Source of the DNA: Armatimonadota bacterium | Lineage (GTDB): Bacteria > Armatimonadota > Fimbriimonadia > Fimbriimonadales > GBS-DC | Direction of reading: 5' to 3' | Length of the DNA stretch: 64,000 nt | Assembly: GCA_037444405.1 (NCBI GenBank) | Contig: JBBIML010000014.1 | Span: 45,689-109,688 of the forward strand | In this document: piece by piece, positions 19,790 through 62,009 of the stretch | Position numbering within the stretch: position 1 is the stretch's first letter | How the letters are laid out: the number at the start of each line of letters is the position of its first letter | The notes under the pieces: generated by a model | Database searches by the model: none | What the model was told of the DNA's origin: nothing | What the model saw: only the letters and a program-made list of their open reading frames with translations | Translations under genes and position numbers: made by a program

Positions 19790-22700
19790 GTGGCTAAGCG
19801 ATGGTGGCTGATTTTGACGGCACTGATCATCGGGAGCGTTGCTTTTGGGCAGAACACGGCAAGCGAGCGTCCGTGGGAGGAGGTGTATCGCAACCGTCCC
19901 AATCGGCACGTGCTGCCGAACGAGCGTCCGCGCACGATTCCGCTCCAGAACTATCGGGAGGTGCCACCCTTCTCCCGCTGGCAGGGGAGCCTCCAGTGGC
20001 AAAAGGGTGGACTGTTCGATCCGCAGCGCTTCCATCAACAGCGGCAATCTCAACCACAGCGTTCGCGCGCGCCGCGCTGGGATCGCGACCTGACCAACGC
20101 GCCCACCGACGAGCTACATCCTGTCTATGCGTCGCGTGCCACCCGCATGTTCTTCGCCAGCAACGCCACAGCTGTCGTGGATGGGCGCCTGGCGAACCCG
20201 GGTCCATACTATCATATCTGGCGCGGCGATCTGGACGACGGCAGCAACCCCGACCTGGGACAGCTGACCAACTACACCCAGATCACGGGTGATACCCCCG
20301 ATGAGCAGTTCTCGTCCCAGATTCAGCCCAGCACCAACGCGAACGGGCACCTCCTCGCCTATGCCTCCCGCTCCGCCGCTGGCAGCTATAACATCATCAT
20401 TCGGAACCTGACCACCAACCAGCGGGTGATTATCACCACCGACAACAACGGCGTGACGCAGAACCTGCGTCCAACGCTGGATCCGGGCGGAGGGCTGGTT
20501 ATTTTCTCTTCGAATCGGCTGGAGGCAGGCGAGACGGAAGCCGACCGCCGATTTCGGCTCTATATGGCACGCGCGGATGGGCGTCCCTTCGATGACGGGC
20601 TCTTCCTGAAACGCCTCACGACCCCTGCCCCTGGCGAGAACGACATCGAACCGGCATGGTCGCCCGATGGCAGTCGGGTGGCGTTCGTGCGAACCTTTGC
20701 GGACGGCAGCAGCTACATCTTTATGCTGGATGTGCGCAACCTCAATATCGGGCAATGGACGAACTTCGTGGATAACAACAATAACCGTCCGCAGGATCGC
20801 CAGCCTACATGGACCACCGACACCGACGGCTCCCTGCGGCTGGTGTTTGCCTCCACGCGCAAGTCGCTCGATAATCAGGGGCGCCACCAGCGACAGCAGC
20901 CGTCGAACAGCGTGGACACCACCAATCGGATTTTCGATATCTATGAGATTGGCACCGACATCCCTGAGGAACTGGGCGCCGTTGCGCTCTCCATCACCGC
21001 CGATCCCAGCACGCCCGCGCTGGCGCGCCCCAACTACCCGGGCGACACCGAGCAGCTGGCAGGTGCCCTGTACCCGACAGGCGCCATCCGCGAGCGCAAC
21101 CGCGTCGCCTACCAGTCCACCCGCCTCAACGAACAACAAAACCAGGGTCCACACGACATCTGGGAGACCTTCCGAACGGACACCATCCCACCCGTAATGG
21201 AGATATTGCCGGTCGTCACCCCGAAAGAGGTCTATCCGCCCGGCTCCAATGTGACCATCCGCATCCGCGCGGTGGACTTCCAGAGCGGGCTGCAGTTCGT
21301 GCGCATCCAGATCAAAGACCCCGATAGCGCCGAACAGGACGAGGAGGGGCTGGAACATAAAATCTATCTTTTCTCGGAGGAGGTGGTTGATCAAAACATT
21401 GTTATTCCTGTGTTTATCGAAATCGGTCAGCAGGCGATTCACCCGGAGACCTATGAGTATAAAGACCCCTATGTGCTGGCGCCGCTGGGCTTCAATGGTC
21501 GCCTGGAGGACACGCTGGCATTGCGGTATGTGCCCGACGACCCGAACAACCCTGATCCCACACAATCGGGCTGGTGGGAGGTCACTTGGCGCACGCCCGA
21601 TGTCGCCAGCGACTTCTACATCGATGTTATCGTGCGCGATAATGCGGGGAATGAGTTCCTCTACGACAACATTTCCGGCTTCACCACGAAGATATTCACA
21701 GGTGGCAACCGCATTCTGCTGGTGTCGGACTATGCGGCGGGACAGATGTTCGTGCAGAACCGAATCGGGGCAGTAGGCAACTCGGCGGGGCGCCCGACAT
21801 GGCTGCCTGTGGAAAGCTACTGGACCGATAACCCGACGGGCAAGCCGCCGTTTGATATTGCCATTAGTCCACCGGGTGTGCCTATCATCGGGGACGGAGC
21901 CATTCCCAGCCCCACGGTACTGCTCGCATTCATTCGCTCCGACACGCTGGGGAGCAACACCACCTACGGCAATCTATACGAGATCTGGCGGGTGCAGTGT
22001 CGGAACCCGATCTCGCCCTCGGTGCTGGCAGGCTATCTACCCCGCTATGAGCGGGAGCCAACCGATTTGCAGGGTGGATTCCGCACCAAGTTGCATGCCG
22101 AGCGTATTGTGGTATGGGCAAGCCCCTACACGGGCGACCTGTGGGCAGGCGCGGGGCATCTGCTGGATCCTGAAATCCAAACACTGCTGCGGAGCTTCCT
22201 GGCAGGAGCAGGGCGCCTGGTGGTCAGCGGTCAGGATGTCGCCTGGGCGCTGAGCCTCGCAGGCGGCACCGCCAACGAGTTCCTCCAGCAGACTTTGCAA
22301 GCGCAGTTCGACACCGATGCAGCCCAGGATGTGTTCCTGCCCATCCCCTACGCCTACCTGCGCCACCAGCTCGACTCCGACGGGCTGGAAACCAATCCTG
22401 ATAATAACGATCCGAACCCGATTGCTTTCAATCCGGGCGGGATGCCCATCTGGTTCATCGAAGATGACGGTACTCAAGGCTCGCCCACCAATCTGCAGAT
22501 CGCCGATCCCGCCACGATGTTGCCCAATAGCGTGATTCTCCGTATTACACCATCCCCACTGATTCCTGGCATCAACAGCGATGGCGCATGGAACCAGATC
22601 TGGCTCGACACCATCTTCACCAACCCGAACGAACGAGCGCCCTACAAGTACACCAACCCCGGCATCACGAACGACCCTCAGCGTCAGCGCGCGGGTACCT

Positions 22701-25252
22701 ACTACGAGAACACAGCCAACAAATCCAAAGTCCTCTACCTTGCTTTCGGGCTGGAAGGTGTTGACTCGGGCTATGAGGATATTGGCGGCATCATCTGGTG
22801 CAACGCCTTCCGCAATAAGGTGCTGCATAACGCTTTCGGCTGGATGACGCACAGCGTGCTGCGCGGCGTCGTGCGCGAGTACGACCCTGAAACCCGCACC
22901 TATCGACCGTTGCCGCGAGCCTTCGTGCGAGTCACGGGCATCCTGCCGCCCAGCGTCAACGGCGTGGAGGTGGGCTACGCCATCACCGACTCGGCAGGTG
23001 AATACACCATCTTCGGAATAGAGGCAGGGCTTTACCTGGTGGACGCCATTCGCCCTGGCTATCGTGTGCAGCACCCGGAGACCGTGATTTTAGTCGCGCA
23101 GGAGTTTGAGCTGAATCTGGTGATGCTGAAAGTGCCGCCCGGGCAAATCAGCGGTCAGGTTATCGATATCAACAATCAGCCCGTGCGCTATGCCCTGGTA
23201 CGAGCCACCAATGTGGACGACCCAACCCTCACCATCGAGGTGTTGAGCGATCCCGACGGCAATTTCCTGATGCCACGCGTGCCAGTGGGTACCTGGAATG
23301 TGACCGTGGTCTCGCTGGCGCTGGGTGGCTACACATTACCGCCCATCCGCCCGCAGCCCGATGGCGTGTTCCGCAATGTGCAGGTGCAAGCAGGTCAGAC
23401 CACGCAACTGCCTGAACCCTTCGTGCTGGAGCCACTGCCGGGCACCATTCGCGGGCAGGTCACCCGCGCCGATAACGGGCAGCCGATTCAGGGCGCGCGC
23501 GTGGTCGCCGTCGCCAATAATGTGGAGCGCGGCTCCGCCACCACCGACGCCAGCGGCAACTACAGCTTCGAGGTGCCCGGCGGCGAATACCAGGTGACGG
23601 CGACGGCGCCCGGATTTGCGCCCAGCACGCAGACTGTCACCGTGCCCCGCGAAGGTGAGGTGGTGGTGAACTTCCAGCTGGCAAAGCTGCCGCCAGGGCG
23701 CGTGACGGGGCGCGTGGTGCGCAAGTTCGGCGGCGCACCGGAGCCGGGTGTTAAGATCGAACTGCTATTTGGCAATACATCCATCTACAGGGCGACCACC
23801 GAACCCGACGGCACCTACACTATCGACCCTGTGGAGCCGGGCGACTATGTGGTGCGCCCGACCAAGACGGGGTTCACCTTCGAGCCGCCCACACGCACTA
23901 TCACGGTTCAACCGAATCAGACCACAACGGTGCCGGACTTCAAGTCGCAGCCGTTGCGCACCTTCTTCCGCGGGCGCAGCCTGGTGTCGGCGCCGTTCGA
24001 TTACAGTCAGGATATTGCCGACCTGCTCGATGTGCCGCCCGACCAGCGGCGCTTCCCCAACTTCCGATTCTTCACCTGGGACACGGTGAACAGCCGCTAT
24101 ATCTTCTATCCTGACGCGCCTGCCAACCGCTTCGCGCTCGGACGCGGCTACTTCATCGAGACCACGCAGGACCTGCCGCTGGCAACCGAAGGCACACCCG
24201 CCGACGAGAGCCAGAGCTTCCCGATACCTCTGCGACGCGGCTGGAACCTGATTGGCACGCCGTTCCGATTCGACATCGACTGGGAGCAGACCCAGGTGAT
24301 TGACCCCGACACCAACACGCCCATCTCCAACGCGACGGCAGTCGGCAAGCAGATTATCGCGAACGCGCTGTGGGGCTATGCGTTTGGCACCTACAACGCC
24401 ACTCGCCGCATGAAAATCTGGGAGGGCTACTGGGTCTACGCCTATAAGGACACCACGCTGCTGATCCCGCCCACAGCGCGGGCGCGCTCGGCGGTCAGTC
24501 GCAGCGTGGACGCACCGACGCCGGGGGGCTGGACGCTCGCGCTGCAGGTGCAATCGGGCGAGCTGATGGATCAGGCGTACATCGGCGTCTCGCGCGGCGC
24601 ATCGCCGGGCTATGACGCCTCGCACGACCTGCTCAAACCGCCGCCCGTTGGGCGCGACTATGTGTATATCAGCATGCCGCGCCTGAACTGGGGCGCGCAG
24701 AGCGGCATGTACGGCGTGGATGTGCAGGCGCCCTCGCGCAGCGCAAGCTGGGAGTTCACCGTCGAGACCACCCAGCCCAATCGCGAAATCACCCTGCGCT
24801 GGCCCAACATCCACCTGCTGCCCCGCTCGGCGAACCTGGTGCTGGTGGACCTGCAGACGGGCGCCCGCCGCTACCTGCGCACCACTGGCTCCTACACCTT
24901 CCGCAGCCCGCAAAACGGTGTCAGCCGATTCCGAATCGAGCTGGCGTCCAGTGCAGGGCTGCTGCGGATTGGCAATGTGCAGGTTACGGGCGGTCGCGGC
25001 AACCAGCGTACCATCACCTTCACCCTGACGGGCGAGGCGAGCGTGGAGGTCAGCGTGCTGGCGGGCGGCAGGGTGGTGCGCCAGCTGCTGACCAGCGCTG
25101 GACGCAGCGCGGGCGTACAACAGGTCAGCTGGGACGGGCGCGACCAGAACGGCATCGCGCTACCGCCTGGCACCTACACCGTCGAAATTCGAGCGGTGAG
25201 CGAGGATGGGCAGGTGGCACGCGCCGCCACCACCATCATCCTCACCCGATAG
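19790..25252 (+). CDS. Large exported protein: PD40/TolB-like propeller, carboxypeptidase-regulatory-like Ig repeats, shared C-terminal module with FlgD-Ig domain
   Basis: Signal peptide; EPAWSPDGSRVAF; repeats G.I.G.V...G.P..GA.V...TD..G.Y; GWNLIGTPF; WDGRDQNGIALPPGTY; ends IILTR; SD GAGGAGG. Confidence 0.85.
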   Translation: MAKRWWLILTALIIGSVAFGQNTASERPWEEVYRNRPNRHVLPNERPRTIPLQNYREVPPFSRWQGSLQWQKGGLFDPQRFHQQRQSQPQRSRAPRWDRDLTNAPTDELHPVYASRATRMFFASNATAVVDGRLANPGPYYHIWRGDLDDGSNPDLGQLTNYTQITGDTPDEQFSSQIQPSTNANGHLLAYASRSAAGSYNIIIRNLTTNQRVIITTDNNGVTQNLRPTLDPGGGLVIFSSNRLEAGETEADRRFRLYMARADGRPFDDGLFLKRLTTPAPGENDIEPAWSPDGSRVAFVRTFADGSSYIFMLDVRNLNIGQWTNFVDNNNNRPQDRQPTWTTDTDGSLRLVFASTRKSLDNQGRHQRQQPSNSVDTTNRIFDIYEIGTDIPEELGAVALSITADPSTPALARPNYPGDTEQLAGALYPTGAIRERNRVAYQSTRLNEQQNQGPHDIWETFRTDTIPPVMEILPVVTPKEVYPPGSNVTIRIRAVDFQSGLQFVRIQIKDPDSAEQDEEGLEHKIYLFSEEVVDQNIVIPVFIEIGQQAIHPETYEYKDPYVLAPLGFNGRLEDTLALRYVPDDPNNPDPTQSGWWEVTWRTPDVASDFYIDVIVRDNAGNEFLYDNISGFTTKIFTGGNRILLVSDYAAGQMFVQNRIGAVGNSAGRPTWLPVESYWTDNPTGKPPFDIAISPPGVPIIGDGAIPSPTVLLAFIRSDTLGSNTTYGNLYEIWRVQCRNPISPSVLAGYLPRYEREPTDLQGGFRTKLHAERIVVWASPYTGDLWAGAGHLLDPEIQTLLRSFLAGAGRLVVSGQDVAWALSLAGGTANEFLQQTLQAQFDTDAAQDVFLPIPYAYLRHQLDSDGLETNPDNNDPNPIAFNPGGMPIWFIEDDGTQGSPTNLQIADPATMLPNSVILRITPSPLIPGINSDGAWNQIWLDTIFTNPNERAPYKYTNPGITNDPQRQRAGTYYENTANKSKVLYLAFGLEGVDSGYEDIGGIIWCNAFRNKVLHNAFGWMTHSVLRGVVREYDPETRTYRPLPRAFVRVTGILPPSVNGVEVGYAITDSAGEYTIFGIEAGLYLVDAIRPGYRVQHPETVILVAQEFELNLVMLKVPPGQISGQVIDINNQPVRYALVRATNVDDPTLTIEVLSDPDGNFLMPRVPVGTWNVTVVSLALGGYTLPPIRPQPDGVFRNVQVQAGQTTQLPEPFVLEPLPGTIRGQVTRADNGQPIQGARVVAVANNVERGSATTDASGNYSFEVPGGEYQVTATAPGFAPSTQTVTVPREGEVVVNFQLAKLPPGRVTGRVVRKFGGAPEPGVKIELLFGNTSIYRATTEPDGTYTIDPVEPGDYVVRPTKTGFTFEPPTRTITVQPNQTTTVPDFKSQPLRTFFRGRSLVSAPFDYSQDIADLLDVPPDQRRFPNFRFFTWDTVNSRYIFYPDAPANRFALGRGYFIETTQDLPLATEGTPADESQSFPIPLRRGWNLIGTPFRFDIDWEQTQVIDPDTNTPISNATAVGKQIIANALWGYAFGTYNATRRMKIWEGYWVYAYKDTTLLIPPTARARSAVSRSVDAPTPGGWTLALQVQSGELMDQAYIGVSRGASPGYDASHDLLKPPPVGRDYVYISMPRLNWGAQSGMYGVDVQAPSRSASWEFTVETTQPNREITLRWPNIHLLPRSANLVLVDLQTGARRYLRTTGSYTFRSPQNGVSRFRIELASSAGLLRIGNVQVTGGRGNQRTITFTLTGEASVEVSVLAGGRVVRQLLTSAGRSAGVQQVSWDGRDQNGIALPPGTYTVEIRAVSEDGQVARAATTIILTR

Positions 25253-25260
25253 TGCGCTTT

Positions 25261-25289
25261 TGCCCGTTCCCCCGCGCGGGGAACGGGCA
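25261..25289. other. Intra-operon stem-loop
   Basis: 12-bp stem tgcccgttcccc/ggggaacgggca, 8 nt after the stop; no U-tract on the + strand. Confidence 0.65.
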
Positions 25290-25342
25290 GGAAGCAAGCT
25301 GTTCACAAAGAAAATAGACAACGGTAAGGAGGAACGACCAGA

Positions 25343-27142
25343 GTGAGAACACGGAGACGACGAATCTGGGCAAAACGCTGGAGTCTGGCGGGCGTTGCCA
25401 GCATGCTGCTGATGTGGCTGCTGGCGCCATTTGGCATGCCGCCGGCACAGGCACAGCTGGTGCAACTGCCGCGCATTGCGGTCATCGACTTCCAGAACAA
25501 AAGCGGCTACGGCGGCGCCAGCATCGCGCGCGCCGCCACCGACGCCATCGCCAGCGAGTACCAGAAAACGGGGCGCTATGAGGTGCTGGCGCGGGGCGAA
25601 ATCGAGCAGCAGCTCAAAGACCTCGATTTAGCTCCCCCGCTGAGCAAAACGGGCTACCTGCGACTGGGACGCGCCCTCCAGCTCGAATCGATTGTGGCAG
25701 GCGATGTGGAAGCCATCACCTTCACTGGCTCCCCGAAGCAGGCGCAGGTAACCCTCACGGTCAAGGTGATCGATGTGGCATCAGGTGAGCCGGTGAACGG
25801 CGCGGTCGTGACAGGCTCCAGCAACCCGCGCCCGGGCTACAGCGGCGACGACGATACCCTGGTGCTGGAGGCGGTGCGCAACGCCGCCTTCGAAGCGGTG
25901 CGTACCATCCTGAACTACACCATCCCTGAAGCGACCGTGCTGACCACCCGCGCGGGCAAGGAGGTGCTGCTCAATCGCGGCATTCGCGGCGGGCTGAAAC
26001 CCGGCATGGAGATGATTGTCATTCGCAACAACGAAGAGGTCGGACGCATCCGCATCACCGAAGTGTCCGATAGTGACGCCGTGGGCGTGATCATCCAGTC
26101 GCTGCGCGGCATCCAGACCGAAGACAAGGCGCGCGCCGTGTACGAAATACCTTCGGTCAAAGTCAAAGCCGGCAAAGTAGTTAAAGAAGAGCCGCGCAGT
26201 CGCGCTGAGCGCAACCGGGCACTCAAAGCGCTGGGTCCGATCCTTGTGCTGGGACTGATTGCGTTCGGCATTGCACGCGCTTCATCTGGCGGCAACACAC
26301 CCGTGCAGGATGTCCTCGCCGAAGCGGGTGCCGACGGCAACTTCGAACCCTTCGTGCGAGTCTCATGGAAGACCACCCTCTTCGCCAAGAGCAACCGCGA
26401 CCAGATCCAGTGGCAAATCTACCGCTCCGACTTCATCGATATCGACGGCAACGGCAATATGATCCCGGTGGGTGTGGTGCCGGGCAATCAGCACTGGTTT
26501 ATTGACACCACTGTGCCGCGCGTGGTGAACTACGCCAGCCTGCCGCGCGAGGGCAGTGAGGACCTGGGGCTGGAGGAGGTCGATACCGCGCCGGGCGTCG
26601 CGCCAGGACGATCCTACACCTACCAGCTGGCTCTGGTCTATCGTGAGGTGCGTGATGTGGCAGGTGGTGGCACGGGAGGCGGTGGCGGGCAGCAGGTGGT
26701 TTTCCTGCTGTCGGACCGTGTGCGCTCCGGGCAGGTGACCGTCATTCAGCCCGTGCAGCTGCTGACCCCTGTCCAGCGCAGCGAGGATGTGGACCCGAAA
26801 GACATCCTCTTCAGCTGGCTGGCATCGGAGGGCGCCAACGCCTACCGTATTGAGGTCTCCACCGATCCCACCTTCCGCGACCGCAGCCGAACCTTCGTCT
26901 CGGCGGAGATTCTCTCCACAGCGGTGGGCGGTAGCCCCGTTAGCCCGCCTGACCGAATCAATATTGAATCTGCGCTGCTGCAGCGGCTGGGACTGGCGGG
27001 TAAGCGCGTCACGCTCTACTGGCGTGTGGGCGCCCGCAACCTGAACGATAACCCCGGTCCAATACCGGGTCCGGGCGGTCTGCGCTATGTGTGGAGCCGA
27101 CCGTTCGAGTTCACCACGCAGGAGCTGCCGCCGCCACCCTGA
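25343..27142 (+). CDS. CsgG/FlgT-fold exported protein with internal hydrophobic segment and Fn3-like domains
   Basis: Signal peptide; RIAVIDFQNKS...TGRYEVLAR..I...LGRALQLESIVAGDV...VKVIDVASGE; FlgT-C-like VLLNRG...GLKPGM...VGRIRITEV; LGPILVLGLIAFGIA; ends PPPP. Confidence 0.75.
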   Translation: MRTRRRRIWAKRWSLAGVASMLLMWLLAPFGMPPAQAQLVQLPRIAVIDFQNKSGYGGASIARAATDAIASEYQKTGRYEVLARGEIEQQLKDLDLAPPLSKTGYLRLGRALQLESIVAGDVEAITFTGSPKQAQVTLTVKVIDVASGEPVNGAVVTGSSNPRPGYSGDDDTLVLEAVRNAAFEAVRTILNYTIPEATVLTTRAGKEVLLNRGIRGGLKPGMEMIVIRNNEEVGRIRITEVSDSDAVGVIIQSLRGIQTEDKARAVYEIPSVKVKAGKVVKEEPRSRAERNRALKALGPILVLGLIAFGIARASSGGNTPVQDVLAEAGADGNFEPFVRVSWKTTLFAKSNRDQIQWQIYRSDFIDIDGNGNMIPVGVVPGNQHWFIDTTVPRVVNYASLPREGSEDLGLEEVDTAPGVAPGRSYTYQLALVYREVRDVAGGGTGGGGGQQVVFLLSDRVRSGQVTVIQPVQLLTPVQRSEDVDPKDILFSWLASEGANAYRIEVSTDPTFRDRSRTFVSAEILSTAVGGSPVSPPDRINIESALLQRLGLAGKRVTLYWRVGARNLNDNPGPIPGPGGLRYVWSRPFEFTTQELPPPP

Positions 27143-27160
27143 GCGCGGCACGATTCTCAA

Positions 27161-27190
27161 GCCGTTTCGGGAGCGACTTCCCGAAACGGC
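27161..27190. other. Intra-operon stem-loop
   Basis: 12-bp stem gccgtttcggga/tcccgaaacggc. Confidence 0.65.
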
Positions 27191-27255
27191 ATACCCGTTT
27201 GAGCGTCTGAACAGATGAGCGTGCGATTGGGAACCAATCGGGAGGGAAGCAACCG

Positions 27256-30198
27256 ATGAGATGGATGTGGCGACTGTGGCTTGGATGGGTGCTGATTCTG
27301 GGCTGCGCAGCAGCCCAGACGCTGACACCTGACGATGTGGTGCGCGGCGAGATACTGCTGACGATGCGCGCGGGCACTTCGATAGAGAAGGCGCGCGCGC
27401 TGGCAAACAGCGTGAATGCCGATTTGCGCCCGATCCGCGTGCCCGACACCTATGTGCTGCGCCTGCGCGACCAGCAGGGCGTAACGGACGCCGCGCTGCT
27501 GGAGCGGGTTCAGCAGGCGGTGGAGCGGCTCAAAAACGAGCCTGATGTGCGGTATGTCCGCCCGCACTGGCGCGCCCGCCTGATGGATGTGCCCAACGAC
27601 CCGCGCTACGGCGAACAGTGGGCGCTTCCGATGATCCGCGCACCCGAAGCTTGGGATCAGGAAAAGGGGCAGGCAGGTGTCCGAATCGCCATCATCGATG
27701 ATAACTTCGAACGCAACCATCCCGATCTCGCAGGTCGCTTCGATCCGCTTTCGCGCAACTTTGAAGCCGACCCTCCCGATGAGAACATCGATCCCGCGCC
27801 CGGCTCCTTCTTCTCACACGGGACACTGGTGATGGGTGTAGCCGCCGCCAATACCAATAACGGCGTCGGGATTGCAGGTCTATGCTGGGAGGGAGTTACG
27901 GTCGTGGCGCTGACCACCACCAAGCAGAGCTCTGGCTTCCTCAACGGCGAGAATATCCTTGAAGCGATGCAGTATGTCGTGGATAACGCACGCGACGGCA
28001 GCGGCAATCAGGTTATTCACACTGTTAACATGAGTTTCGGTAGCGGCTTCCCTGACCCTCAGGAAAACAGCCTGATCCAGCAGATGTATCAGCGGGGCGT
28101 GGTGCCCGTCGCTTCAGCTGGCAACGAGAACAGCTCGAGCCCACGCTACCCCAGCGATTTTGATAATGTGATTCGGGTGTCCGCTGTTGGTCCCACAGGG
28201 CTGAAAGCTTCTTATTCGAACTTTGAGCGCATCGATCTGGCGGCGCCCGGCGGCGATCAGCAGTCCCGCCTGCAGGATGGGGTGCTTAGCACCGCGATAG
28301 GTGGCAGCTACGAATATGTGCAGGGCACTTCCTTCTCCTCGCCTTATGTGGCGGCGGCGGTGGCGCTGCTGATCTCGGCTGGTGCGCCCGTGCATGACCC
28401 CAATCGGGACCCCATCCCCCCTGCCCAGGAGGCGCTGCAGGAGACGGCTGACTCGCAGGGGCGGGCGGTGCCCGATCCAGAATTGGGCTGGGGCATCATC
28501 GATGTGGGTTCAGCCATTCGGGGCTTCGGCGGCGCCAGCATCACCATTGTAAGCCCCGCGAACAATACCTTCACCGACACCCGACGCATGCGAATCAATG
28601 TGATTGTGCGTCGCAGCACACTGCCCCAGATTCACCTCTTCTTCATGGGTGAAGAAATCCCGCGCTCGCAGTGGGAGCCGTTCGCCAGCGTCTCCAGCGA
28701 TGGCAAAACCATCACCATTTTCGGCTATGAGCTGGTCGCACCAGGTGAGGGGCGCTTCGACTTCACCGTAACAGCAGTGGGACAGGACGGCAACACAGCC
28801 ACGCAAACGGCGACGATTAATGTCCGCTCCCGTCAGCAGCCAGCAGGTCTGGCAATGTTCGCCACACCCTATCGTGTGAGCGGGGCGCCCGAAGAGATTT
28901 TCGGTGCGGATGCGATTCTGGCGCGCTACCTGCCATCTCAGGGGCGCTACGCGCGCTACTCTGGCAGCGGCACGCGCGAGCCGGAAGCGAGCTTCAATCC
29001 GCCCGGCGTGCGCGTGCGCCCTGAAGGGAGCGCGATTCCCACCCCGCCACGCGGACTGGGCTACTTCCTGCGCACGAACAGCCCCACCTTCATTCTGGGC
29101 GACGAGTTCATCGATCCGAACACCGCCTACCTGATCCCACTGGAGCCAGGCTGGAACATGATTGGCAATCCCTTCCCATTCTCGGTACCCTGGAGTGCGT
29201 GCGAGATCGAGGTGGAAGGGCAGGCAGGCGTGCGCCAGCGGCTCAATATCCTGGAGGCTGCTGACAAAGAGTACATTCGCCCGCAAATCTATCGCTACAT
29301 CACGCTCACGGGCGAATATACATGGCGCACAGCGCCGCTGGGCGAGCTGTTGCCCTGGCAGGCGCACTGGGTCAGGGTACTCAAGCCCTGCACGCTGATT
29401 GTGCCGCCGCTGGGCACAACCCGCAGCCGTGACGAAGCGGCATCCGAGAACCCGCGCGTTACACCGGACACGCGCGACGGCTGGCTGATCCGCCTCATCG
29501 CTCGCAGCGGCGACCGGGAAGACGCCAACAACTTCATCGGGGTCAGCCCGCGCGCCCGCGACGAGATGGGCAGCGAAGATGTGGAGAAGCCACCGCTGTT
29601 CCAGTCGTATGTGCAGCTGCGTGTGATCGAGCCGCGCAGCCGCGCTGCGCTCGCTCAGGACCTGCGACGGGCTGCTAAACGCCTGATGCGCTGGGAGCTG
29701 GAAGTTACCACCGACAAGCCCAACGCGGAGGTCACACTCCGCTGGCAACAGGAGGTGCCGCTGCCGACCAGCATGCGACTGACGCTGGTGGATAGCCTCA
29801 CAGGGCAGCGCATCTCGATGAATCGCCAGAGCGCGTACACCTTCCGCACCGACGAGAACAGTCGGCGGCGGTTTATTATCGAGGCGCAACCCTCGCGCCT
29901 GAGCCAGCTGCGCATCACGAACTTTACCATCGCCCGCACGCGCGGCAATCAGATCACTGTCCAGTACGCGCTGAATGCGACCGCCAGCGTGCAGGTGCTG
30001 GTTCAGGATTCGGCGGGGCGAACAATTGCGCGTCTAACAGGCGGTACCCGCTCGGCAGGGCTGAACACCGTCACATGGACAGGGCGCACCGATTCGGGTA
30101 TCGCCGTGCCGCCAGGCACTTATCAGATTCAGATTATCGCGACGGGCGAGGAGGGCGACACCGCCCGCGCTGTGCGCCCGCTCGTCATCACCCGCTAA
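27256..30198 (+). CDS. Exported S8 subtilisin-like serine protease with the shared C-terminal module and FlgD-Ig domain
   Basis: Prodomain; triad IAIIDD / SHGTLVMG / QGTSFSSPYVA; ASAGNE; GWNMIGNPF; ends ARAVRPLVITR. Confidence 0.92.
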   Translation: MRWMWRLWLGWVLILGCAAAQTLTPDDVVRGEILLTMRAGTSIEKARALANSVNADLRPIRVPDTYVLRLRDQQGVTDAALLERVQQAVERLKNEPDVRYVRPHWRARLMDVPNDPRYGEQWALPMIRAPEAWDQEKGQAGVRIAIIDDNFERNHPDLAGRFDPLSRNFEADPPDENIDPAPGSFFSHGTLVMGVAAANTNNGVGIAGLCWEGVTVVALTTTKQSSGFLNGENILEAMQYVVDNARDGSGNQVIHTVNMSFGSGFPDPQENSLIQQMYQRGVVPVASAGNENSSSPRYPSDFDNVIRVSAVGPTGLKASYSNFERIDLAAPGGDQQSRLQDGVLSTAIGGSYEYVQGTSFSSPYVAAAVALLISAGAPVHDPNRDPIPPAQEALQETADSQGRAVPDPELGWGIIDVGSAIRGFGGASITIVSPANNTFTDTRRMRINVIVRRSTLPQIHLFFMGEEIPRSQWEPFASVSSDGKTITIFGYELVAPGEGRFDFTVTAVGQDGNTATQTATINVRSRQQPAGLAMFATPYRVSGAPEEIFGADAILARYLPSQGRYARYSGSGTREPEASFNPPGVRVRPEGSAIPTPPRGLGYFLRTNSPTFILGDEFIDPNTAYLIPLEPGWNMIGNPFPFSVPWSACEIEVEGQAGVRQRLNILEAADKEYIRPQIYRYITLTGEYTWRTAPLGELLPWQAHWVRVLKPCTLIVPPLGTTRSRDEAASENPRVTPDTRDGWLIRLIARSGDREDANNFIGVSPRARDEMGSEDVEKPPLFQSYVQLRVIEPRSRAALAQDLRRAAKRLMRWELEVTTDKPNAEVTLRWQQEVPLPTSMRLTLVDSLTGQRISMNRQSAYTFRTDENSRRRFIIEAQPSRLSQLRITNFTIARTRGNQITVQYALNATASVQVLVQDSAGRTIARLTGGTRSAGLNTVTWTGRTDSGIAVPPGTYQIQIIATGEEGDTARAVRPLVITR

Positions 30199-30211
30199 CG
30201 GAGGAGAGACT

Positions 30212-32944
30212 ATGATGCGGTTCTGCATATCTGGATGGGTTTTAAGCGTTATGCTGGTCGTCACGAGCCTGACACCTTTATGGGGGCAGCGCGTGTACGA
30301 TCCCTTCAGCTTCCCCTGCTGCTGCCCCACCGATCAGGGCGGCTGCGTAGAGAACCCTGTAAGCGACGATTATGCGGCGATTAACATCACCAATGGCGTG
30401 CTGGGCGCCACTTTGGGGCTGGGTGGCACTATTCAGTGGTACACAGGTTGCTTCCCGATGACCAATACGCGGTGCATCACGCTGCAGGCGGAAGGTAGCA
30501 TCCAGTTCGGCACCAGCGGTGGTACCAGCCTGCTGCGCGGTAATGATGATAATATCGCGATGACCTCCGGCTACCCATGGGCAGTCTATCCTGGTGGAAT
30601 TTATATCAGCATGCAGGAACAGCGTGGGAACCAGACGCGCACCTTCGTGTGGGGGCGCGAACAGGGCGCTCCCAGCCTAATCTTCGATCGCGCCTGGCCC
30701 GGTGTCAGCGGCGTCTATATTCGGCGCCAGTGGTATGTGGAGGGCTGGCAGACCGATATGCGCATCGAGCTGATCCAGTCGGTGGCGCGTATCGAGCTGC
30801 GCGTGCGCAACACCGGCACCGAAGCGGCGTCGCTTGCGCTGCGCCTGGCATCCGATGTGGAGGTGGGTGTCGAGGAAGGTGTGGACCCGAACGGCGCGTC
30901 GCTGCCCCCCTATGTCTATGTGCAGGGTCAGCGCCCCATTAAAGTGGACACCGATTTGCGCGGTGTGCAGGTGCCGCCTGCGGTGGAGTTCTATCTTTCA
31001 CGCGGCGATCTCAACGGCGCGTCGCGCTACATCCTGCGCCCGATGCCCGGCTTCGAAGACGCCACCCCCATCGACCGCCTGGTGTTCGGTGAGTGGTTCT
31101 TCATTCAGGCGACCACCAACTGGGAGCCAGTGCTGTTCCCCGATAGATTTATCAGCGATGTGGCGGTTAACATGTTCGTGAATCCGCGCAACTTCGCGCC
31201 GGGTCAGGAGCGCGTGTTCGTGTTCTATGTGGTGCTGACCCCCGTCGATATCGATGTGCAGCCGCCTCTGGCAGTCGGGGTGGAAACCCTGCCCGTCATC
31301 GAACCGAACCAGCAGGATCTGTCCCAGCTGGCGAACGGCGGCGTGTTCGATGTGATTGCCTCGGTCACCAACATGTTCCATGTGGTGGACAAGGAGGTTG
31401 ACCTGCGCAATGTGACGGTCGATCTGGCGCTGCCTGCGGGGCTGAGCCTGGCATCCGGGGAAACGCGCACCAAAAGCATCGCGCAGATTCAACCGGAATC
31501 GACCGGTTCGGTTCGGTGGCGCGTGGTTGCCGATCCGAAGGCAGTGGGCTTTTCGACCATCCGTGTCTCGGTGAACGCGCCGCCCGCGCCGCCCAAAACG
31601 GTCAGCCGCACGATTTTGATTTCCGCCACCGCGAGCCGCGAGCTGAAACGCGGATTCCAGATAGTTTCGATCCCCTTCACTACGACGGCGCCGCTGGTCG
31701 ATGTGCTGGGTCTACCTGAAGGCACCTACCTTGCTAAGCGCTGGAACCCCGACCGGGAAGTGTACGAGACGGTGGATGTCCTGCAGCCCGGCATCGGGTT
31801 CTGGCTCTACCTGCCCAACGAGGGCACAAACATCACCATGAGCAATGTGCGCTTCCCGCCTGCGGTCTTCACTGCCAGCGTGCCGATCCGCCTCAGCCGC
31901 GGATGGAACCAGATTGGCAATCCCTATCCGTACCCGCTGGTGCTGGGGCAGATCGTGGTGGTAAGTGCGAGCGATCCACGCACCAGCCTCAGCTTCTTCG
32001 AAGCTGCCCAGCGTGGGGTCATTCGCGGCGTCATCTACTACTGGGACGAGTTCTTCGGCGAATATAAGTTCACTTCCGACCCCAACACGCCCCTGATACC
32101 GCACAGGGGGTACTGGATCAAGTGCAACGACGATATTGATCTGGTGTTTCCGCCCGTGTTCATGCCTGGCACAGGATTCGGTGGCGTGATCGGCGGACGC
32201 TCCGCCTCGGAGCAGCCAAATCGCCCCAATGAGTGGCGTCTGCAGCTGATTGCTCGCACCGAGCGCGGCGAGGACAGCCAGAATTATATCGGTCTCACCA
32301 GCGGTCGCTCGGCAGGTGAGGTGGAGGAGCCGCCCGCACCGTTAGCTGAGGTGCCCGTGCGCCTGACCATTCTCAAACCGGGCACAAACGCGCCCCTGAT
32401 GCAGGATGTGCGTCCCGCCTCCGCCACGCGCCACACCTTCGAACTGCTGGTGGAGGCGCCAGCGGGCACAGAAGTGAGCCTGCGCGCGCCTAATGTGCGC
32501 ACCGTGCCGCGCACCTACCGCCTGCGCCTGACCGATCAAAGCACGGGGCGCACGGTCGACTTGCGCAACACGCCCGAATATCGCTTCACTTCCAGCGGGC
32601 GCAACCGATTCACGCTGAGCGTGGAGCGCGGCGCGCGCGGTGGTGCGCTCATCACCAGCATCAGCGTGGGCGCAGCGGGGCGTGGCGCAAACAGCGTCAG
32701 CATCTCCTATGTGCTGGCGCAGGACGCCCAGACCAATGTGCAGATTCTGGGCGCGGACGGACGCCTCATCGCCAGCCTGCAACAGGGGCGCGCTGCCACA
32801 CGCGGCGTGAACACCGTCGTCTGGAACCTGCGCGATAACGCCGGACGCGCTGTGCCACCTGGCACCTATCGTGTGCAGGTCGAAGCCCGCGACTCCGACG
32901 GGCAGATCGCGCGCGCGGTACGACCGCTTATCGTAACGCGCTAA
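30212..32944 (+). CDS. Large exported protein (Cys-rich N-terminus, beta-rich) with the shared C-terminal module and FlgD-Ig domain
   Basis: Signal peptide; PCCCPTDQGGC; GWNQIGNPY; WNLRDNAGRAVPPGTY; ends ARAVRPLIVTR; SD GGAGGAG. Confidence 0.85.
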   Translation: MMRFCISGWVLSVMLVVTSLTPLWGQRVYDPFSFPCCCPTDQGGCVENPVSDDYAAINITNGVLGATLGLGGTIQWYTGCFPMTNTRCITLQAEGSIQFGTSGGTSLLRGNDDNIAMTSGYPWAVYPGGIYISMQEQRGNQTRTFVWGREQGAPSLIFDRAWPGVSGVYIRRQWYVEGWQTDMRIELIQSVARIELRVRNTGTEAASLALRLASDVEVGVEEGVDPNGASLPPYVYVQGQRPIKVDTDLRGVQVPPAVEFYLSRGDLNGASRYILRPMPGFEDATPIDRLVFGEWFFIQATTNWEPVLFPDRFISDVAVNMFVNPRNFAPGQERVFVFYVVLTPVDIDVQPPLAVGVETLPVIEPNQQDLSQLANGGVFDVIASVTNMFHVVDKEVDLRNVTVDLALPAGLSLASGETRTKSIAQIQPESTGSVRWRVVADPKAVGFSTIRVSVNAPPAPPKTVSRTILISATASRELKRGFQIVSIPFTTTAPLVDVLGLPEGTYLAKRWNPDREVYETVDVLQPGIGFWLYLPNEGTNITMSNVRFPPAVFTASVPIRLSRGWNQIGNPYPYPLVLGQIVVVSASDPRTSLSFFEAAQRGVIRGVIYYWDEFFGEYKFTSDPNTPLIPHRGYWIKCNDDIDLVFPPVFMPGTGFGGVIGGRSASEQPNRPNEWRLQLIARTERGEDSQNYIGLTSGRSAGEVEEPPAPLAEVPVRLTILKPGTNAPLMQDVRPASATRHTFELLVEAPAGTEVSLRAPNVRTVPRTYRLRLTDQSTGRTVDLRNTPEYRFTSSGRNRFTLSVERGARGGALITSISVGAAGRGANSVSISYVLAQDAQTNVQILGADGRLIASLQQGRAATRGVNTVVWNLRDNAGRAVPPGTYRVQVEARDSDGQIARAVRPLIVTR

Positions 32945-32951
32945 AATTCAC

Positions 32952-32976
32952 GGGGGTAGCCGTCAACGCTGCCCCC
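32952..32976. other. Intra-operon stem-loop
   Basis: gggggtagc/gctgccccc, 9 bp including one G-U pair. Confidence 0.5.
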
Positions 32977-32999
32977 AAACCAAACAGGGAGGCAAATCG

Positions 33000-33689
33000 G
33001 TGAAACGGACTGTTCTGACCGGGGCACTCATGATTCATCTGCTGCTCGCAGGCGCGTTCGCCAGCACGCGCGAGCTGGTCATCTTGCCCTTCGGCATGGG
33101 CAGCGGCGTGCAACAGCCGCAGGATTTCAACCTGAATACGGAGCTGACGAACGCGCTCTATGCCCAGCTGAAGGCGATCCCCGACCTGTATGTGATGCGC
33201 TTCAAGGAGACGAACCCAGCGGTGCGCCGTGCGCTGGACGAGAACCGCCTGCGCCGCGACCGCCTGAACCCGCCCTTTAATGTGCGTGAGGCGGATGGCA
33301 CATGGCGCTCCGCCCGAATCGGGCAGATTCTGGGCGTGACCTATGCGCTGGCGGGCAATATCGAGGAGTTCCGCTATGATCCCGACACCCGAACGGCGAC
33401 CATCACGGTGAGCATGGACCTGGTGCAGGTGTCGGACGGCACCGTGCTGGTCTCGCTGGCGGAGACGGGTCAGGGACGCCTGAGTGGCGACGACCCGAAC
33501 ACCGCTTATATAGCCGCGATTGCCAGCGTCGCCAAGAAGCTGGGCGCGTCGCTGCAGGAGCGGTTGACCCCACCTGCACCCGCCGAGCCGCCCAAAACAC
33601 CGAAAGTGTCCATCCGCCGCACGGAGCGAGCCACTGCTGCCATTTTTGGACTGCTGATTCTGGTGGGGTTGCGCCTCACCTTTTTCTAA
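33000..33689 (+). CDS. Small CsgG/LpoB-fold exported protein with C-terminal hydrophobic anchor
   Basis: Signal peptide; LVILPF...IGQILGVTYALAGNIEEF...SMDLVQVSDG; Pro/Lys linker, then ATAAIFGLLILVGLRLTFF. Confidence 0.7.
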   Translation: MKRTVLTGALMIHLLLAGAFASTRELVILPFGMGSGVQQPQDFNLNTELTNALYAQLKAIPDLYVMRFKETNPAVRRALDENRLRRDRLNPPFNVREADGTWRSARIGQILGVTYALAGNIEEFRYDPDTRTATITVSMDLVQVSDGTVLVSLAETGQGRLSGDDPNTAYIAAIASVAKKLGASLQERLTPPAPAEPPKTPKVSIRRTERATAAIFGLLILVGLRLTFF

Positions 33690-33692
33690 CGC

Positions 33693-35636
33693 ATGCGAAC
33701 TGGGTTGTTGCGCAGGGCGCGTTTGAGCTGGGCAGGGAGCCTGTGGCTGGTTCTCTGCCTGCTTGCTCATGGCGGTTCCGGCACCATTCGGCTCACGGCA
33801 TACCCCACTGCGCTCGTGGCGGATGGCGCGTCTTCCGTCACGCTCACCGCTGAAGTGCGCACCGCGCAGGGCAAACCGGTGCCCGACGGCACTCAGGTTA
33901 CCTTCAGCACCACGCTGGGCACTCTGCGCGAATCGGTGGTTCCCACCGAAGGCGGTGTGGCGCGCGCGACGCTGATTGCCAGCCAGCTGCCCGGCGTCGC
34001 TCTTGTCACCGCCACCGCGCTGGGGCAGGGGCTTGTGGCGCAGACGCAGGTGATGATGGTGCGCGACGCCAGCGAGCTGCGCACCGCCACCGACTATGTG
34101 CAGGTAACAGCGTCTGACTATCTGGCTTACGCGAACGAACAGCGTGTGATTGCCGCCAGCGGGCGCGACAAAGGCGCAACCATCCAGTACGGCTTCATCC
34201 GCATCGAAGCCGACGACCTGCAACTGCTGGTGGATGACCTGCAGGTGAAAGCCCGCAACGCGACGCTCCACTACGGACCTGCCACGCTCAGCTTCGATGA
34301 GCTTGCCTGCAACCTGCGCACGGGCGACGGCTACGGGACTGTTCAGCAGGAAGGACGATGGCAGGTGATGCGCGTTCAGAGCGCCCGCGCGACCCCTGTG
34401 CAGGAGCCGCTCCCGCCAGAAATGTTCCGCTTCGAAGACATCTCCCAATCGGAGATGGTGATCAAGGCGGAGCAGATATGGTTCTATCCGGGCGAGCGGT
34501 TGCAGTTCCATCGCGCCGATTTTTATGTGGGTGCGGTGCGCGTGATGAGCCTGCCGCTCTATTCGCACAGCCTGTGGGGTGGTGTGGGTACCGATACCCT
34601 GATTGGCGTGCAGGGCAGTCAGCTCTATCTCGATCTGCCCTATTATTATGCGCTCAAGCCGGGTCAGGTGGGCGCGCTGCGGTTGCGCACGGCGCAGCGG
34701 GGCGGTCGCGGCGTCAGCAGCGCGCGCGGGCTGTTCCTTGATCTGGAGCATGAGTACCGCTTCGGGCTGGGCAGGGGGAGTTTCACGGTGTCCAGCCTCG
34801 CTCGCGAGGATTGGGGCATCAGCTGGCGCCACTATCAGCCGCTGGGCGCGTCGATGCGCCTGAACCTATGGCTCGACTCGCCCGCGCACAGGGGTCTGTT
34901 CGCCTCTGCGCAGCTGTCGCATCAGGGCAGGAGCTACTCCACCGGACTGACGCTCGCGGGCAGCACCTTCTGGGAGGGTGCCCGCGCCCGCACCCTGCGC
35001 GCCGAGTTCTATGTGGAGAGCAACCCGCGCAAGGTGACTAACTGGCCGCTGCGCCAGAGCCTCTCGCTGAATCTCAGCTCCGCGCGCACGCACCTGAGCG
35101 GTTCATCGGGCACGCGGCGCGACGGGGTGGGACTGCGCGCCCGCTGGACGCTCGTGCCGCTCGATCTGGACAGCCGTACCACGCTGACAGGCGGGTTGAG
35201 CATCGGGCGCTTTCTGGGCAACCTGCCGAACGCGGGCTGGGAACTGCTCGGCTCGCTGGGCATCTCGCATGCGCTGGGCAGCGGCGCTCTCACGCTCACC
35301 TACGACTATGCGCAGGACCCGCTCGGCATCAACTTGCTGGGGCAGCACCGACTGTCGGGCAGCCTCAACTGGACAATCGGTGACCGCCTCTACGCCACCG
35401 CCTACGGCAGCCGCTCGCTGGATCGGGACGCCACCAGCCTCATCGCCGACCTCTCATGGCGGCTGGGCACACGCTGGCGCATCGGCACGGGCATCACCTG
35501 GCAGCAGTTTCACGGCTCTGCCTTTCGCGACCAGACCTACACCATCGCCTATCGGCTCGGATTCCGCGAACTCGCGCTCACATGGTCCACTTTTAGCCGC
35601 CGCTGGAGCTTTGATCTGCTGACCGTTTTTTATTGA
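33693..35636 (+). CDS. Outer-membrane protein: invasin/Big_1 Ig domain, OstA-like jellyroll and LptD-like beta-barrel
   Basis: LVADGASSVTLTAEVRTAQGKPVPDGTQVTFSTTLG; IEADDLQL; IKAEQIWFYPGERLQFHRADFYVG..VMSLP; YLDLPYYY; amphipathic strands; aromatic C-terminus VFY. Confidence 0.72.
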   Translation: MRTGLLRRARLSWAGSLWLVLCLLAHGGSGTIRLTAYPTALVADGASSVTLTAEVRTAQGKPVPDGTQVTFSTTLGTLRESVVPTEGGVARATLIASQLPGVALVTATALGQGLVAQTQVMMVRDASELRTATDYVQVTASDYLAYANEQRVIAASGRDKGATIQYGFIRIEADDLQLLVDDLQVKARNATLHYGPATLSFDELACNLRTGDGYGTVQQEGRWQVMRVQSARATPVQEPLPPEMFRFEDISQSEMVIKAEQIWFYPGERLQFHRADFYVGAVRVMSLPLYSHSLWGGVGTDTLIGVQGSQLYLDLPYYYALKPGQVGALRLRTAQRGGRGVSSARGLFLDLEHEYRFGLGRGSFTVSSLAREDWGISWRHYQPLGASMRLNLWLDSPAHRGLFASAQLSHQGRSYSTGLTLAGSTFWEGARARTLRAEFYVESNPRKVTNWPLRQSLSLNLSSARTHLSGSSGTRRDGVGLRARWTLVPLDLDSRTTLTGGLSIGRFLGNLPNAGWELLGSLGISHALGSGALTLTYDYAQDPLGINLLGQHRLSGSLNWTIGDRLYATAYGSRSLDRDATSLIADLSWRLGTRWRIGTGITWQQFHGSAFRDQTYTIAYRLGFRELALTWSTFSRRWSFDLLTVFY

Positions 35637-35652
35637 CGGGAGGGACTGCCCT

Positions 35653-36090
35653 GTGCGTTCGTCAACGGTCGCTGTATGGGTGTTGCGATTGCTCGGCGTG
35701 GGCTTTCTGGTATTCGGGCTGCTGTTCGCCTTCGCGCCGGCGGGCACCCTCGAATATTTCAACCGCTGGGGTCAGGCGCTGGGCTGGCAGGAGCCGATGC
35801 CCCTCGATGAGGGCGGACTCTGGCGGGTGCTGGCGGTTGCCTTCATGGTGATGGTGACGGTGCTGGCGTTCTGGGGCGCACAGCCGACTCCGGCGCGTCC
35901 CGCCCTGCTGATGGTGCTGACCCTCGGCAAGCTCAGTTCCTCCCTGCTGGCGCTGCTGTTCTACTGGCTGGTTGCTCCCCACTTTATCTACCTGCTCAAC
36001 TTTGCGGTGGATGGCTCCATCGCGCTGATCGTGTTCTGGTGTCGGCAAGTGTTGCGAGGCGCCGATTCGGTGGGAGGGGTTGCCCGATGA
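35653..36090 (+). CDS. Hypothetical 4-TM membrane protein
   Basis: Four hydrophobic segments; SD GGAGG; ATGA overlap with the next gene. Confidence 0.75.
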   Translation: MRSSTVAVWVLRLLGVGFLVFGLLFAFAPAGTLEYFNRWGQALGWQEPMPLDEGGLWRVLAVAFMVMVTVLAFWGAQPTPARPALLMVLTLGKLSSSLLALLFYWLVAPHFIYLLNFAVDGSIALIVFWCRQVLRGADSVGGVAR

Positions 36091-60959: not shown

Positions 60960-61073
60960 TGTTCTTCACCTCCACTTGAGATTGAAATGGCAATGCAGCG
61001 ACTACGCTGCATGAACCCATAAATCACTGCTGCGTGAGGGTGATACCCTCCGCATCACCTGCCCTCCTATTAA

Positions 61074-61997
61074 TTAAGCCTGTCTGGGGACATCACGGGT
61101 CATTCGCGGGTCATTCGCATAGCGCAGGGTCTGACAAACCCTCTTTATCCAGTTATAGTCAATCCCGCACTGGCTGGTGACATAGTTGAAGTCCATGTCA
61201 AACTGCCACATGTTCGTGTTATCGGAGTTAACAGGTCTACAGGTTTCATGCAAATGGGTCAGTTTGACATGCCCATCGGCGAAAATGATATTGAAGCGCT
61301 TGTCCGTGCCGCGATGGCGCGCCCCCCAGTTACTGTAGGGGCTGTCTCCCCACCTGTAGGGGCAGGTCGGGCAGAGATAGAACATCCAGGGACCGTAGTC
61401 CGGATAGACATCCTTGTTCTCGCCAACCAGAATTGCGGTTGAGGGATATGTGATGGCTGTGAGGCGGTAGTTTATGCCCTTTTGCCAAGCCGCAGTGCCT
61501 TCTGGAAAAGAGGACTTGAAGAAAGCATGGTAGTAAAAGTACCCTCGCCTGAAAGAAGGCGGAATGCGTCGATTCTGCAGGCATACATCGACACCCGGCG
61601 CCTCATCGGGGTCAGCCGATGCCTGATCACGAGCTCGCGATAGAGGATTGGTAGGGCAGATGAAAACATCTGCGTTTTTCAGGTAAGGATAAACCATGTG
61701 TTTCCACTCGAAGCATGGATTTTCCTGATACCCCTCGCGGCATGGGTCTGGATGGGGATAGAACAGATATGTCTCGCGTCTTAGAGGAAGCCCATCATCG
61801 TGGTCGCTGGCGTAGCTGAGGAGTGCGATGCCGAGCTGCCTCATATTGCTGGCGCACTGGGTCAATCGTGCCGATTCGCGCGCCTGTGCAAACACGGGGA
61901 ACAGAATCGCCGCCAGAATGGCGATAATCGCTATCACGACCAGCAGTTCGATGAGTGTGAATCCCGCAATCTTCGGTTGCACTTTTTGGAGTTTCAT
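61074..61997 (-). CDS. DUF1559 prepilin-type N-terminal cleavage/methylation protein with H-X9-DG-type motif
   Basis: [46 protein letters not shown]...[10 protein letters not shown]. Confidence 0.93.
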
Positions 61998-62009
61998 GAC
62001 TCAGACCTC

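Follow-up and report, generated by a model that had tools for sequence, protein, structure and literature searches.

A duplicated-domain C-terminal cassette on exported Armatimonadota proteins and its apparent kinship with type IX sorting domains

Three exported proteins with one tail

Here we describe a C-terminal module, or cassette, that is shared by three proteins encoded in a stretch of 64,000 nt from the genome of a hot-spring Armatimonadota bacterium, and we consider how it relates to the sorting domains of T9SS, the type IX secretion system. The stretch, which we call the window, is positions 45,689-109,688 of contig JBBIML010000014.1 (G000:C14:45689-109688 in our numbering); the source genome is 2.68 Mb and 98.9% complete. 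A run of genes on the same strand lies at 19790-36090 of the window. Three open reading frames (ORFs) in this run, which are genes 1, 3 and 4, encode the module proteins:

19790..25252, + strand: gene 1, 1820 aa; signal peptide, PD40/TolB-like repeats, four CarboxypepD_reg domains, and the module at 23948-25252
27256..30198, + strand: gene 3, 980 aa; signal peptide, fervidolysin-like prodomain, S8 subtilase, Ig-like (immunoglobulin-like) linker, and the module at 28822-30198
30212..32944, + strand: gene 4, 910 aa; signal peptide, an N-terminal part of 470 residues without a Pfam family, and the module at 31631-32944

All three reading frames are open. The last 434, 458 and 437 residues of the products of genes 1, 3 and 4 form a colinear alignment with 30-34% identity, and pairwise comparisons of the tails with BLASTP gave E values of 1e-54, 3e-51 and 1e-38. 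The N-terminal parts of these proteins are unrelated to each other. The Asp, His and Ser motifs of the S8 subtilase are visible in gene 3, and this enzyme is apparently active. An earlier note on this DNA had described three paralogues with a colinear C-terminal module, and the alignment agrees: every motif that the note listed can be seen in it, and the proteins end in IILTR (gene 1), LVITR (gene 3) and LIVTR (gene 4), each directly before the stop codon.

A search of the source genome with a profile of the tail found five copies of the module, which are the three in the window and one each on contigs C9 and C13:

G000:C9:201960-206687, - strand: WD40 passenger; ends in ILLTR
C13:1048-4218, - strand: passenger without a known family; ends in IVLTR; FlgD_ig match of 32.0 bits

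The C9 paralogue (L001:7961-12631, - strand; 1556 aa) has about 14 WD40 repeats and five repeats of about 95 residues, and then the module. (The window also encodes, at 43850-45592 on the - strand, a 580-aa WD40 propeller protein that lacks the module.) The neighbors of the C9 and C13 copies are all housekeeping genes (ThrRS, LpxK, and an amylase-like gene).

The ends of these proteins are distinctive within the genome. The genome has 15,629 ORFs that end in a stop codon and encode 80 aa or more. R is the last residue of 2,905 of them and TR the last pair of 156, and just five have three residues from the set L, I or V followed by TR; these five are exactly the five module proteins. A signal peptide is recognizable from the sequence at the start of each of them.

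Domains and fold of the module

We divide the module into four domains, D1a, D1b, D2 and D3, which are listed here for gene 3 (residues are numbered from the start of the module):

28822..29115, + strand: D1a, residues 1-98; first copy of a duplicated small beta domain, with the motifs S.P[YF] ... L.RW.P..G.Y ... G.GYF
29116..29436, + strand: D1b, residues 99-205; second copy, with the motifs GWN.IGNPF ... Y..G.Y ... W.GYWV
29464..29907, + strand: D2, residues 215-362; beta-sandwich domain
29908..30198, + strand: D3, residues 363-458 and the stop codon; seven-strand sandwich of the FlgD_ig type, with RPLVITR as its last strand

Aligning D1a to D1b with hhalign gave a probability of 75% (E = 2.5e-5, 65 columns) with the motifs in identical order, which indicates an internal duplication; both copies have conserved Trp, Tyr and Asn. 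For the tail of gene 3, an AlphaFold2 model built from an alignment of 45 sequences is confident and all-beta (pLDDT 92.5, pTM 0.83) and has the seven strands of D3 within residues 365-456. A second model, of residues 1-362, agrees with it (pLDDT 91.9, pTM 0.89). When we built separate hidden Markov models for D1, D2 and D3, each of them matched only the same five ORFs in the source genome, in the same order and at the C-terminus.

D1 and D2 do not belong to any family that we could name. They had no match in Pfam at E ≤ 5, and all 30 of their nearest clusters in the Atlas are without a family. A wide fold search of D1-D2 with VIA-align gave a best Z of 5.5 and no chains with Z ≥ 8, but D2 filled the list and D1 was barely tested. 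Similarly, Foldseek gave a best E of 7.4e-4 (probability 0.33) for D1-D2 and barely tested D1, so that search does not exclude any named family. With the whole 458-residue model as the query, Foldseek returned generic Ig and fn3 chains only.

D3 is easier to place. The last ~75 residues of the three window proteins match FlgD_ig (PF13860) with 38.9, 54.7 and 39.8 bits (the Pfam cut-off is 27), so the FlgD-Ig-type cap that the earlier note had proposed is present in all three. VIA-align matched D3 to the C-terminal domain (CTD) of PorU with Z = 11.8 (root-mean-square deviation or rmsd of 2.2 over 94 residues), to the CTD of PorZ with Z = 10.0, and to FlgD with Z = 9.8. The best structural match was the last domain of Vpr from Bacillus (PDB 8jmw, residues 704-802; Z = 13.8, rmsd 2.0, 94 residues aligned, 21% identity). 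Like gene 3, Vpr is an S8 peptidase with a FlgD_ig-type domain at its end. A term search of the paper on Vpr fibrils (PMC10657474) found no passage on domain swapping or donor strands, and we draw no mechanism from that paper. Generic FlgD_ig domains differ from D3 in being internal and tandem, while D3 is strictly terminal.

Relatives, protein ends and gene neighborhoods

We searched 1.84 billion cluster representatives with the module profile and obtained 48,805 matches at E ≤ 1e-3 (many of them to the FlgD_ig part only), 10,426 at E ≤ 1e-10, and 2,102 at E ≤ 1e-30. Of the 150 representatives with the best scores, the order D1-D2-D3 is found in 134 and D3-D3-D1-D2-D3 in one; a further one is a D2-D3 fragment, and the other 14 (P0005, P0007, P0009 and 11 others) are secreted tandem arrays of 8-15 FlgD_ig domains that are unrelated to the cassette. 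In all 136 module representatives from this set, the last domain lies within 0-5 residues of the protein's end, and in 107 the distance is zero. Of the 105 representatives that start with M and have over 150 residues before the module, 82 satisfy a crude rule for signal peptides, and several of the others seem to come from gene calls that were truncated.

A scan of species-representative genomes identified 76 loci with the module. Most of these are from Armatimonadota (Fimbriimonadia, Chthonomonadia, Armatimonadia, Zipacnadia and WS1), and a minority are from Calditrichota, KSB1/Zhuqueibacterota, Bacteroidota, Gemmatimonadota and Marinimicrobia, which we will call FCB-type (for the Fibrobacterota-Chlorobiota-Bacteroidota group). 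The closest relatives are an Armatimonadota metagenome-assembled genome (95%) and 'Bacterium HR15' (86%). The module is present in 141 of 151 Armatimonadota genomes (E ≤ 1e-10), and its copy number ranges from 1 to at least 11; genomes of the same order mostly have 2 copies, and the source genome has 5. D1 by itself was found in 140 of the 151 genomes, and its counts mostly equal those of the module, with higher counts in G010, G020 and G034.

One lineage has D1 without the rest. At locus L027, a relative of gene 2 is followed by an S8 subtilase (820 aa) and then by a 717-aa protein:

L027:4291-6750 and L027:6998-9148, + strand: D1-only proteins; D1, then about 57 residues, then the stop codon

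D2 and D3 are absent there in all reading frames. This D1-only lineage covers genomes G047, G073 and G135 of family f27, and the ORF sizes of L027 recur in G135. D1 is thus the separable core, and a TR-ended D3 is not indispensable everywhere.

To describe the ends of the proteins, we used 72 of the 76 loci (three run off contig ends, and L027 was set apart), of which 53 are Armatimonadota-type and 19 are FCB-type. Loci were grouped by record title, except that six unclear records were assigned by low identity and tail type, so the grouping is partly circular. Of the Armatimonadota-type loci, 51/53 end in R, 26/53 end in TR, and 29/53 have R at position -7 (as do 2 of the 5 copies in the source genome). 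Every FCB-type locus (19/19, including 13/13 of those with a phylum named in the title) ends in K or R, and 18 of the 19 have K (15) or R (3) at -6. The last strand is K-[ML]-[ILV]-L-[ILV]-[KR] in FCB-type tails versus (R)-P-[LIVF]-x-[LIV]-T-R in Armatimonadota-type tails. Across the 136 module representatives, the counts are 119 for a terminal R, 56 for a terminal TR, 80 for P at -6, and 87 for R at -10. In the 14 tandem FlgD_ig arrays, which serve as a control, none end in R and the FlgD_ig match stops short of the last strand. Also, six columns of D3 are nearly invariant in the 45-sequence alignment, and the terminal R is among them. The earlier note had called the final TR invariant, which is not the case: the dipeptide is found in 41-49% of the tails, and what is conserved (88-96%) is an Arg as the last residue, at a constant distance from the fold. 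The note had also named observations that would count against it, namely a terminal TR that is not kept in homologs, or a module that occurs internally or in cytoplasmic proteins. The outcome is mixed: the module is never internal (136/136 are terminal) and all five proteins of the source genome have signal peptides, but the TR is not conserved in homologs.

In the source genome, the three module genes of the window are accompanied by four other genes:

25343..27142, + strand: gene 2, 599 aa; exported or membrane protein; CsgG-like domain at the N-terminus, a single predicted membrane helix, and no module; conserved neighbor
33000..33689, + strand: gene 5, 229 aa; signal peptide, and then a small alpha/beta domain with a membrane helix at the C-terminus; conserved neighbor
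33693..35636, + strand: gene 6, 647 aa; signal peptide followed by a Big_1/invasin-D3 domain and then by what is presumed to be an outer-membrane barrel, with ..TVFY as its end
35653..36090, + strand: gene 7, 145 aa; small hydrophobic protein that recurs only in the closest relative; its membership in the block is uncertain

Genes 2 and 5 flank module genes, and each has a small CsgG/LpoB/TolB_N-like domain and a single membrane helix. (The CsgG-like domain of gene 2 scores 25.0 bits versus a cut-off of 20.8, and the match of gene 5 to LpoB is weak, with E = 0.058.) Gene 2 has relatives beside the S8 gene at 36 of the 76 loci, and gene 6 has relatives at 34 of the 76; both keep their relative positions across classes of Armatimonadota. 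Neither is found at any of the 19 FCB-type loci. Because many loci are cut by contig ends, the absence of neighbors at a given locus says little.

The gene 6 family is present as a single copy in 147 of 151 Armatimonadota genomes. These include all six genomes of family f26, which contain neither the module (0/6) nor D1 alone (0/6), so the gene 6 barrel is a core envelope gene that is independent of the module. A complex prediction for gene 6 (residues 31-647) with D2-D3 (residues 215-458) was run without controls and scored 0.00, which counts neither for nor against binding.

We also compared gene 6 and its neighbors to LptD-LptE, the lipopolysaccharide translocon. Gene 6 has a presumed C-terminal barrel and weak leads in the Atlas (0.88) to the LptD_N/OstA families, and the small domains of genes 2 and 5 are CsgG/LpoB-like. 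When the profile of the gene 6 family was compared to solved chains, it matched Big_1/invasin only and not LptD. The models for the LptD barrel (PF04453) and for LptD_N (PF03968) match other ORFs of the genome and not gene 6. One of those ORFs (L082; G000:C22:10261-12894, - strand) encodes 878 aa with an OstA-like N-terminal stretch and is the genome's sole match to the LptD barrel model, with a weak E of 0.008; this ORF may be the canonical LptD.

We also note that G+C content is about 63% in the window, and that it drops to 0.538 within 60001-62000 (the rest of the window is at about 0.63).

Relation to type IX secretion and proposed role

T9SS sorting domains count as a hallmark of the Bacteroidota and related FCB phyla. 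We compared the last 100 residues of the Armatimonadota tails (53 loci) to those of the FCB tails (19 loci) with hhalign and obtained a probability of 99.0% and an E value of 3.9e-18, over 65 columns (19-84 versus 24-88). Given these profiles, we conclude that D3 of Armatimonadota and the true type A sorting domains of T9SS are homologs. The FCB tails are of this kind, since 11 of 12 non-Armatimonadota tails are over the cut-off of TIGR04183, the model for type A CTDs, and SprA is over its cut-off in 4 of 4 module-bearing FCB genomes. The earlier note had proposed that a block like D1-D2 precedes the CTD in many T9SS cargo proteins of Bacteroidota, and these FCB tails support it. In FCB genomes, the D1-D2 block is homologous to that of Armatimonadota, is colinear with it (23-28% identity over up to 447 residues by tblastn), and sits directly before the end domain. 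The difference is that the end domain there is a true type A CTD and that those genomes encode SprA.

D3 shares with type A CTDs (TIGR04183/PF18962) a seven-strand Ig-like domain that spans about 95 residues and forms the extreme C-terminus, passengers that are varied and exported by Sec, and a basic final residue, which is found in FCB and Armatimonadota tails alike. Unlike type A CTDs, D3 in the source genome always follows D1-D2 and never occurs alone, and it has just five carriers. It is also too divergent for the standard model: the three window tails do not match TIGR04183 at E ≤ 1, there are no matches to TIGR04183 in the whole source genome at E ≤ 0.01, and of four other Armatimonadota tails, one passed the cut-off, over profile positions 9-61 only. 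The three window tails do have weak matches to the C-termini of the PorU and PorZ models (E from 0.001 to 0.1).

The known translocon was not found in the source genome. The sole match to PorU is D3 itself; PorV was not found by a search whose positive control worked in Bacteroides; and SprA has only three short partial matches. GldM and GldL had no match in searches that lacked a positive control, and GldK, GldN and PorP were not searched for. Beyond the source genome, SprA stays below its cut-off in a complete Fimbriimonadales genome, and none of the 151 Armatimonadota genomes has a match to SprA at E ≤ 1e-20.

The partial matches to SprA are to positions 596-687 of the model (best E = 7e-12) and involve three large presumed outer-membrane barrels (the L079-L081 set):

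G000:C11:42361-45177, - strand: SprA-motif barrel, 939 aa; ends in Phe
C6:51495-54995, - strand: SprA-motif barrel, 1167 aa; ends in Phe; weak Porin_4 match below the cut-off
C16:75469-77217, - strand: SprA-motif barrel, 583 aa; ends in Phe

Aside from that Porin_4 match, these barrels have no Pfam family. Relatives of the 939-aa barrel are present in 92 of the 151 Armatimonadota genomes (using a single protein as the query), and their distribution does not track that of the module. We considered gene 6 and the 939-aa barrel as candidate partners of the module by their phyletic distributions, which did not single out either one as the receptor.

The three tails in the window and the two elsewhere are copies of a single D1a-D1b-D2-D3 cassette on Sec-exported proteins with unrelated N-terminal parts, and D3 derives from the same ancestral domain as the T9SS type A sorting domain. 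In Armatimonadota the core of the CTD is kept, its last strand has changed, and the T9SS translocon is missing. We propose that the cassette would take its passenger to the outer face of the envelope or hold it there. D1, which is duplicated, rich in aromatic residues, and the one part kept in every lineage, would be the unit for binding or tethering, and D2-D3 would be a pedestal and cap that ends exactly at a free, basic C-terminus. Overall, we lean towards the view that the cassette is a device for surface targeting or tethering with a CTD-derived cap, because it is portable (it is found on unrelated passengers at scattered loci, and some genomes have at least 11 copies), terminal, exported, and common to T9SS cargo in FCB bacteria. 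That the ...TR end is a determinant of recognition, as the earlier note had suggested, is possible but seems doubtful to us. Because the Arg end is fixed, the free C-terminus probably matters, but it might be read by a machine or might stabilize the fold. As originally worded, the idea of a TR signal lacks support: SprA, PorV and PorU were not found, and the D1-only lineage has no TR.

Several observations weigh against a surface device with a CTD-derived cap. The last strand is left out of the alignment of D3 to the CTDs, and P takes position -6 in 40 of the 53 Armatimonadota-type tails, where FCB tails have a near-invariant basic residue. According to Lauber et al. 2024 (PMC10994853), the conserved motifs of type A CTDs mostly specify the fold, and this may not hold for a nearly invariant Lys, important for function, near the C-terminus. 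This Lys corresponds to the K at -6 of the FCB tails. Since -6 is Pro and the last strand does not align, a feature that is known to matter for type IX secretion is not kept in D3. The structural case for D3 as a CTD is suggestive but not decisive because of the Ig-like background: generic Ig-like domains of glycosidases reach Z = 10-10.8, which is about 1 Z below PorU, and Vpr is above PorU. The D1-only lineage keeps an orthologous S8 protein and its neighbor without D2-D3 or a TR end, which weakens TR as an indispensable signal, and the gene 6 family is present in f26 (6/6) without the module (0/6). Also, the surface location and the ligand of D1 are inferred, and our searches identified no receptor or translocon. 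Finally, with five carriers, three of them fixed in one operon, an envelope complex fits as well as a sorting tag does.

This envelope complex is the main rival explanation. The three module proteins would assemble with the products of genes 2, 5 and 6, the cassette would be a unit for docking or oligomerization, and TR would be a structural end. The synteny of the trio with genes 2, 5 and 6 across classes of Armatimonadota would be expected in this case, as would the low copy number (2 in most genomes of the order and 5 here), the lineage that keeps D1 and the operon without D2-D3, and CTD motifs that mostly specify the fold (Lauber et al. 2024, PMC10994853). But the C9 and C13 copies are on unrelated passengers among housekeeping genes, other genomes have at least 11 copies, and FCB relatives use D1-D2 on T9SS cargo. 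Given the scattered copies, the high copy numbers and the use on cargo in FCB bacteria, a portable tag fits better than a fixed subunit interface, and we consider the complex a serious but less probable explanation.

Another explanation, which we view as unlikely, is export without SprA, in which an unrecognized translocon in the outer membrane reads the Arg-ended D3. The barrel of gene 6 and the SprA-motif barrels are the candidates, and the best match of the latter to SprA 596-687 has an E of 7e-12. Such a reader would account for the strictly free C-terminus with its conserved Arg, for the homology of D3 to CTDs, and for the constraint on D3 in a phylum where SprA is found in 0/151 genomes. 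Nothing links any of the barrels to the module, however: the gene 6 family persists in f26 without it, the 939-aa barrel is missing from families that have the module, D3 never occurs without D1-D2 in the source genome (unlike a free-standing tag), and one lineage makes do with D1. It is far less probable still that these proteins are ordinary T9SS cargo whose CTD is removed by PorU. The weak matches of D3 to the C-termini of the PorU and PorZ models, and FCB relatives that are true T9SS cargo, would be consistent with this. But in a genome that is 98.9% complete, there is no match to TIGR04183, no PorV, no PorU match other than D3 itself and only partial SprA, and SprA is found in 0/151 Armatimonadota genomes versus 4/4 FCB genomes. 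As far as our searches go, the parts of the translocon were not found, and we reject canonical T9SS cargo.

Returning to the cassette as a device for surface targeting or tethering, a more speculative extension, which we think is rather improbable, is that the CTD-derived D3 is the address label of a sister or precursor pathway of type IX secretion in Armatimonadota, a phylum outside the FCB group. If so, that pathway would read a folded domain with a free C-terminal Arg and would be served by the phylum-wide operon or by the SprA-motif barrels. In the literature on Armatimonadota and type IX secretion, we found no paper that describes such tails (subscription journals were outside the coverage of our search).

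Nearly every Armatimonadota genome that we sampled contains a clear homolog of the T9SS sorting domain, fused to three domains that have neither a name nor a clear relative among solved structures (D1 being barely tested), and the known translocon was not found. If D3 is a plain structural cap, then this is a warning against predicting T9SS cargo from ends that resemble FlgD_ig or the CTD. Otherwise, the phylum may have its own, unrecognized way to export or anchor surface proteins. With 2,102 cluster representatives at E ≤ 1e-30, the unnamed family of the D1-D2 block is large and merits a model of its own. The cassette is also a marker for a small, conserved group of envelope proteins, among them the apparently active subtilase, and so offers an entry to the poorly known cell surface of Armatimonadota.

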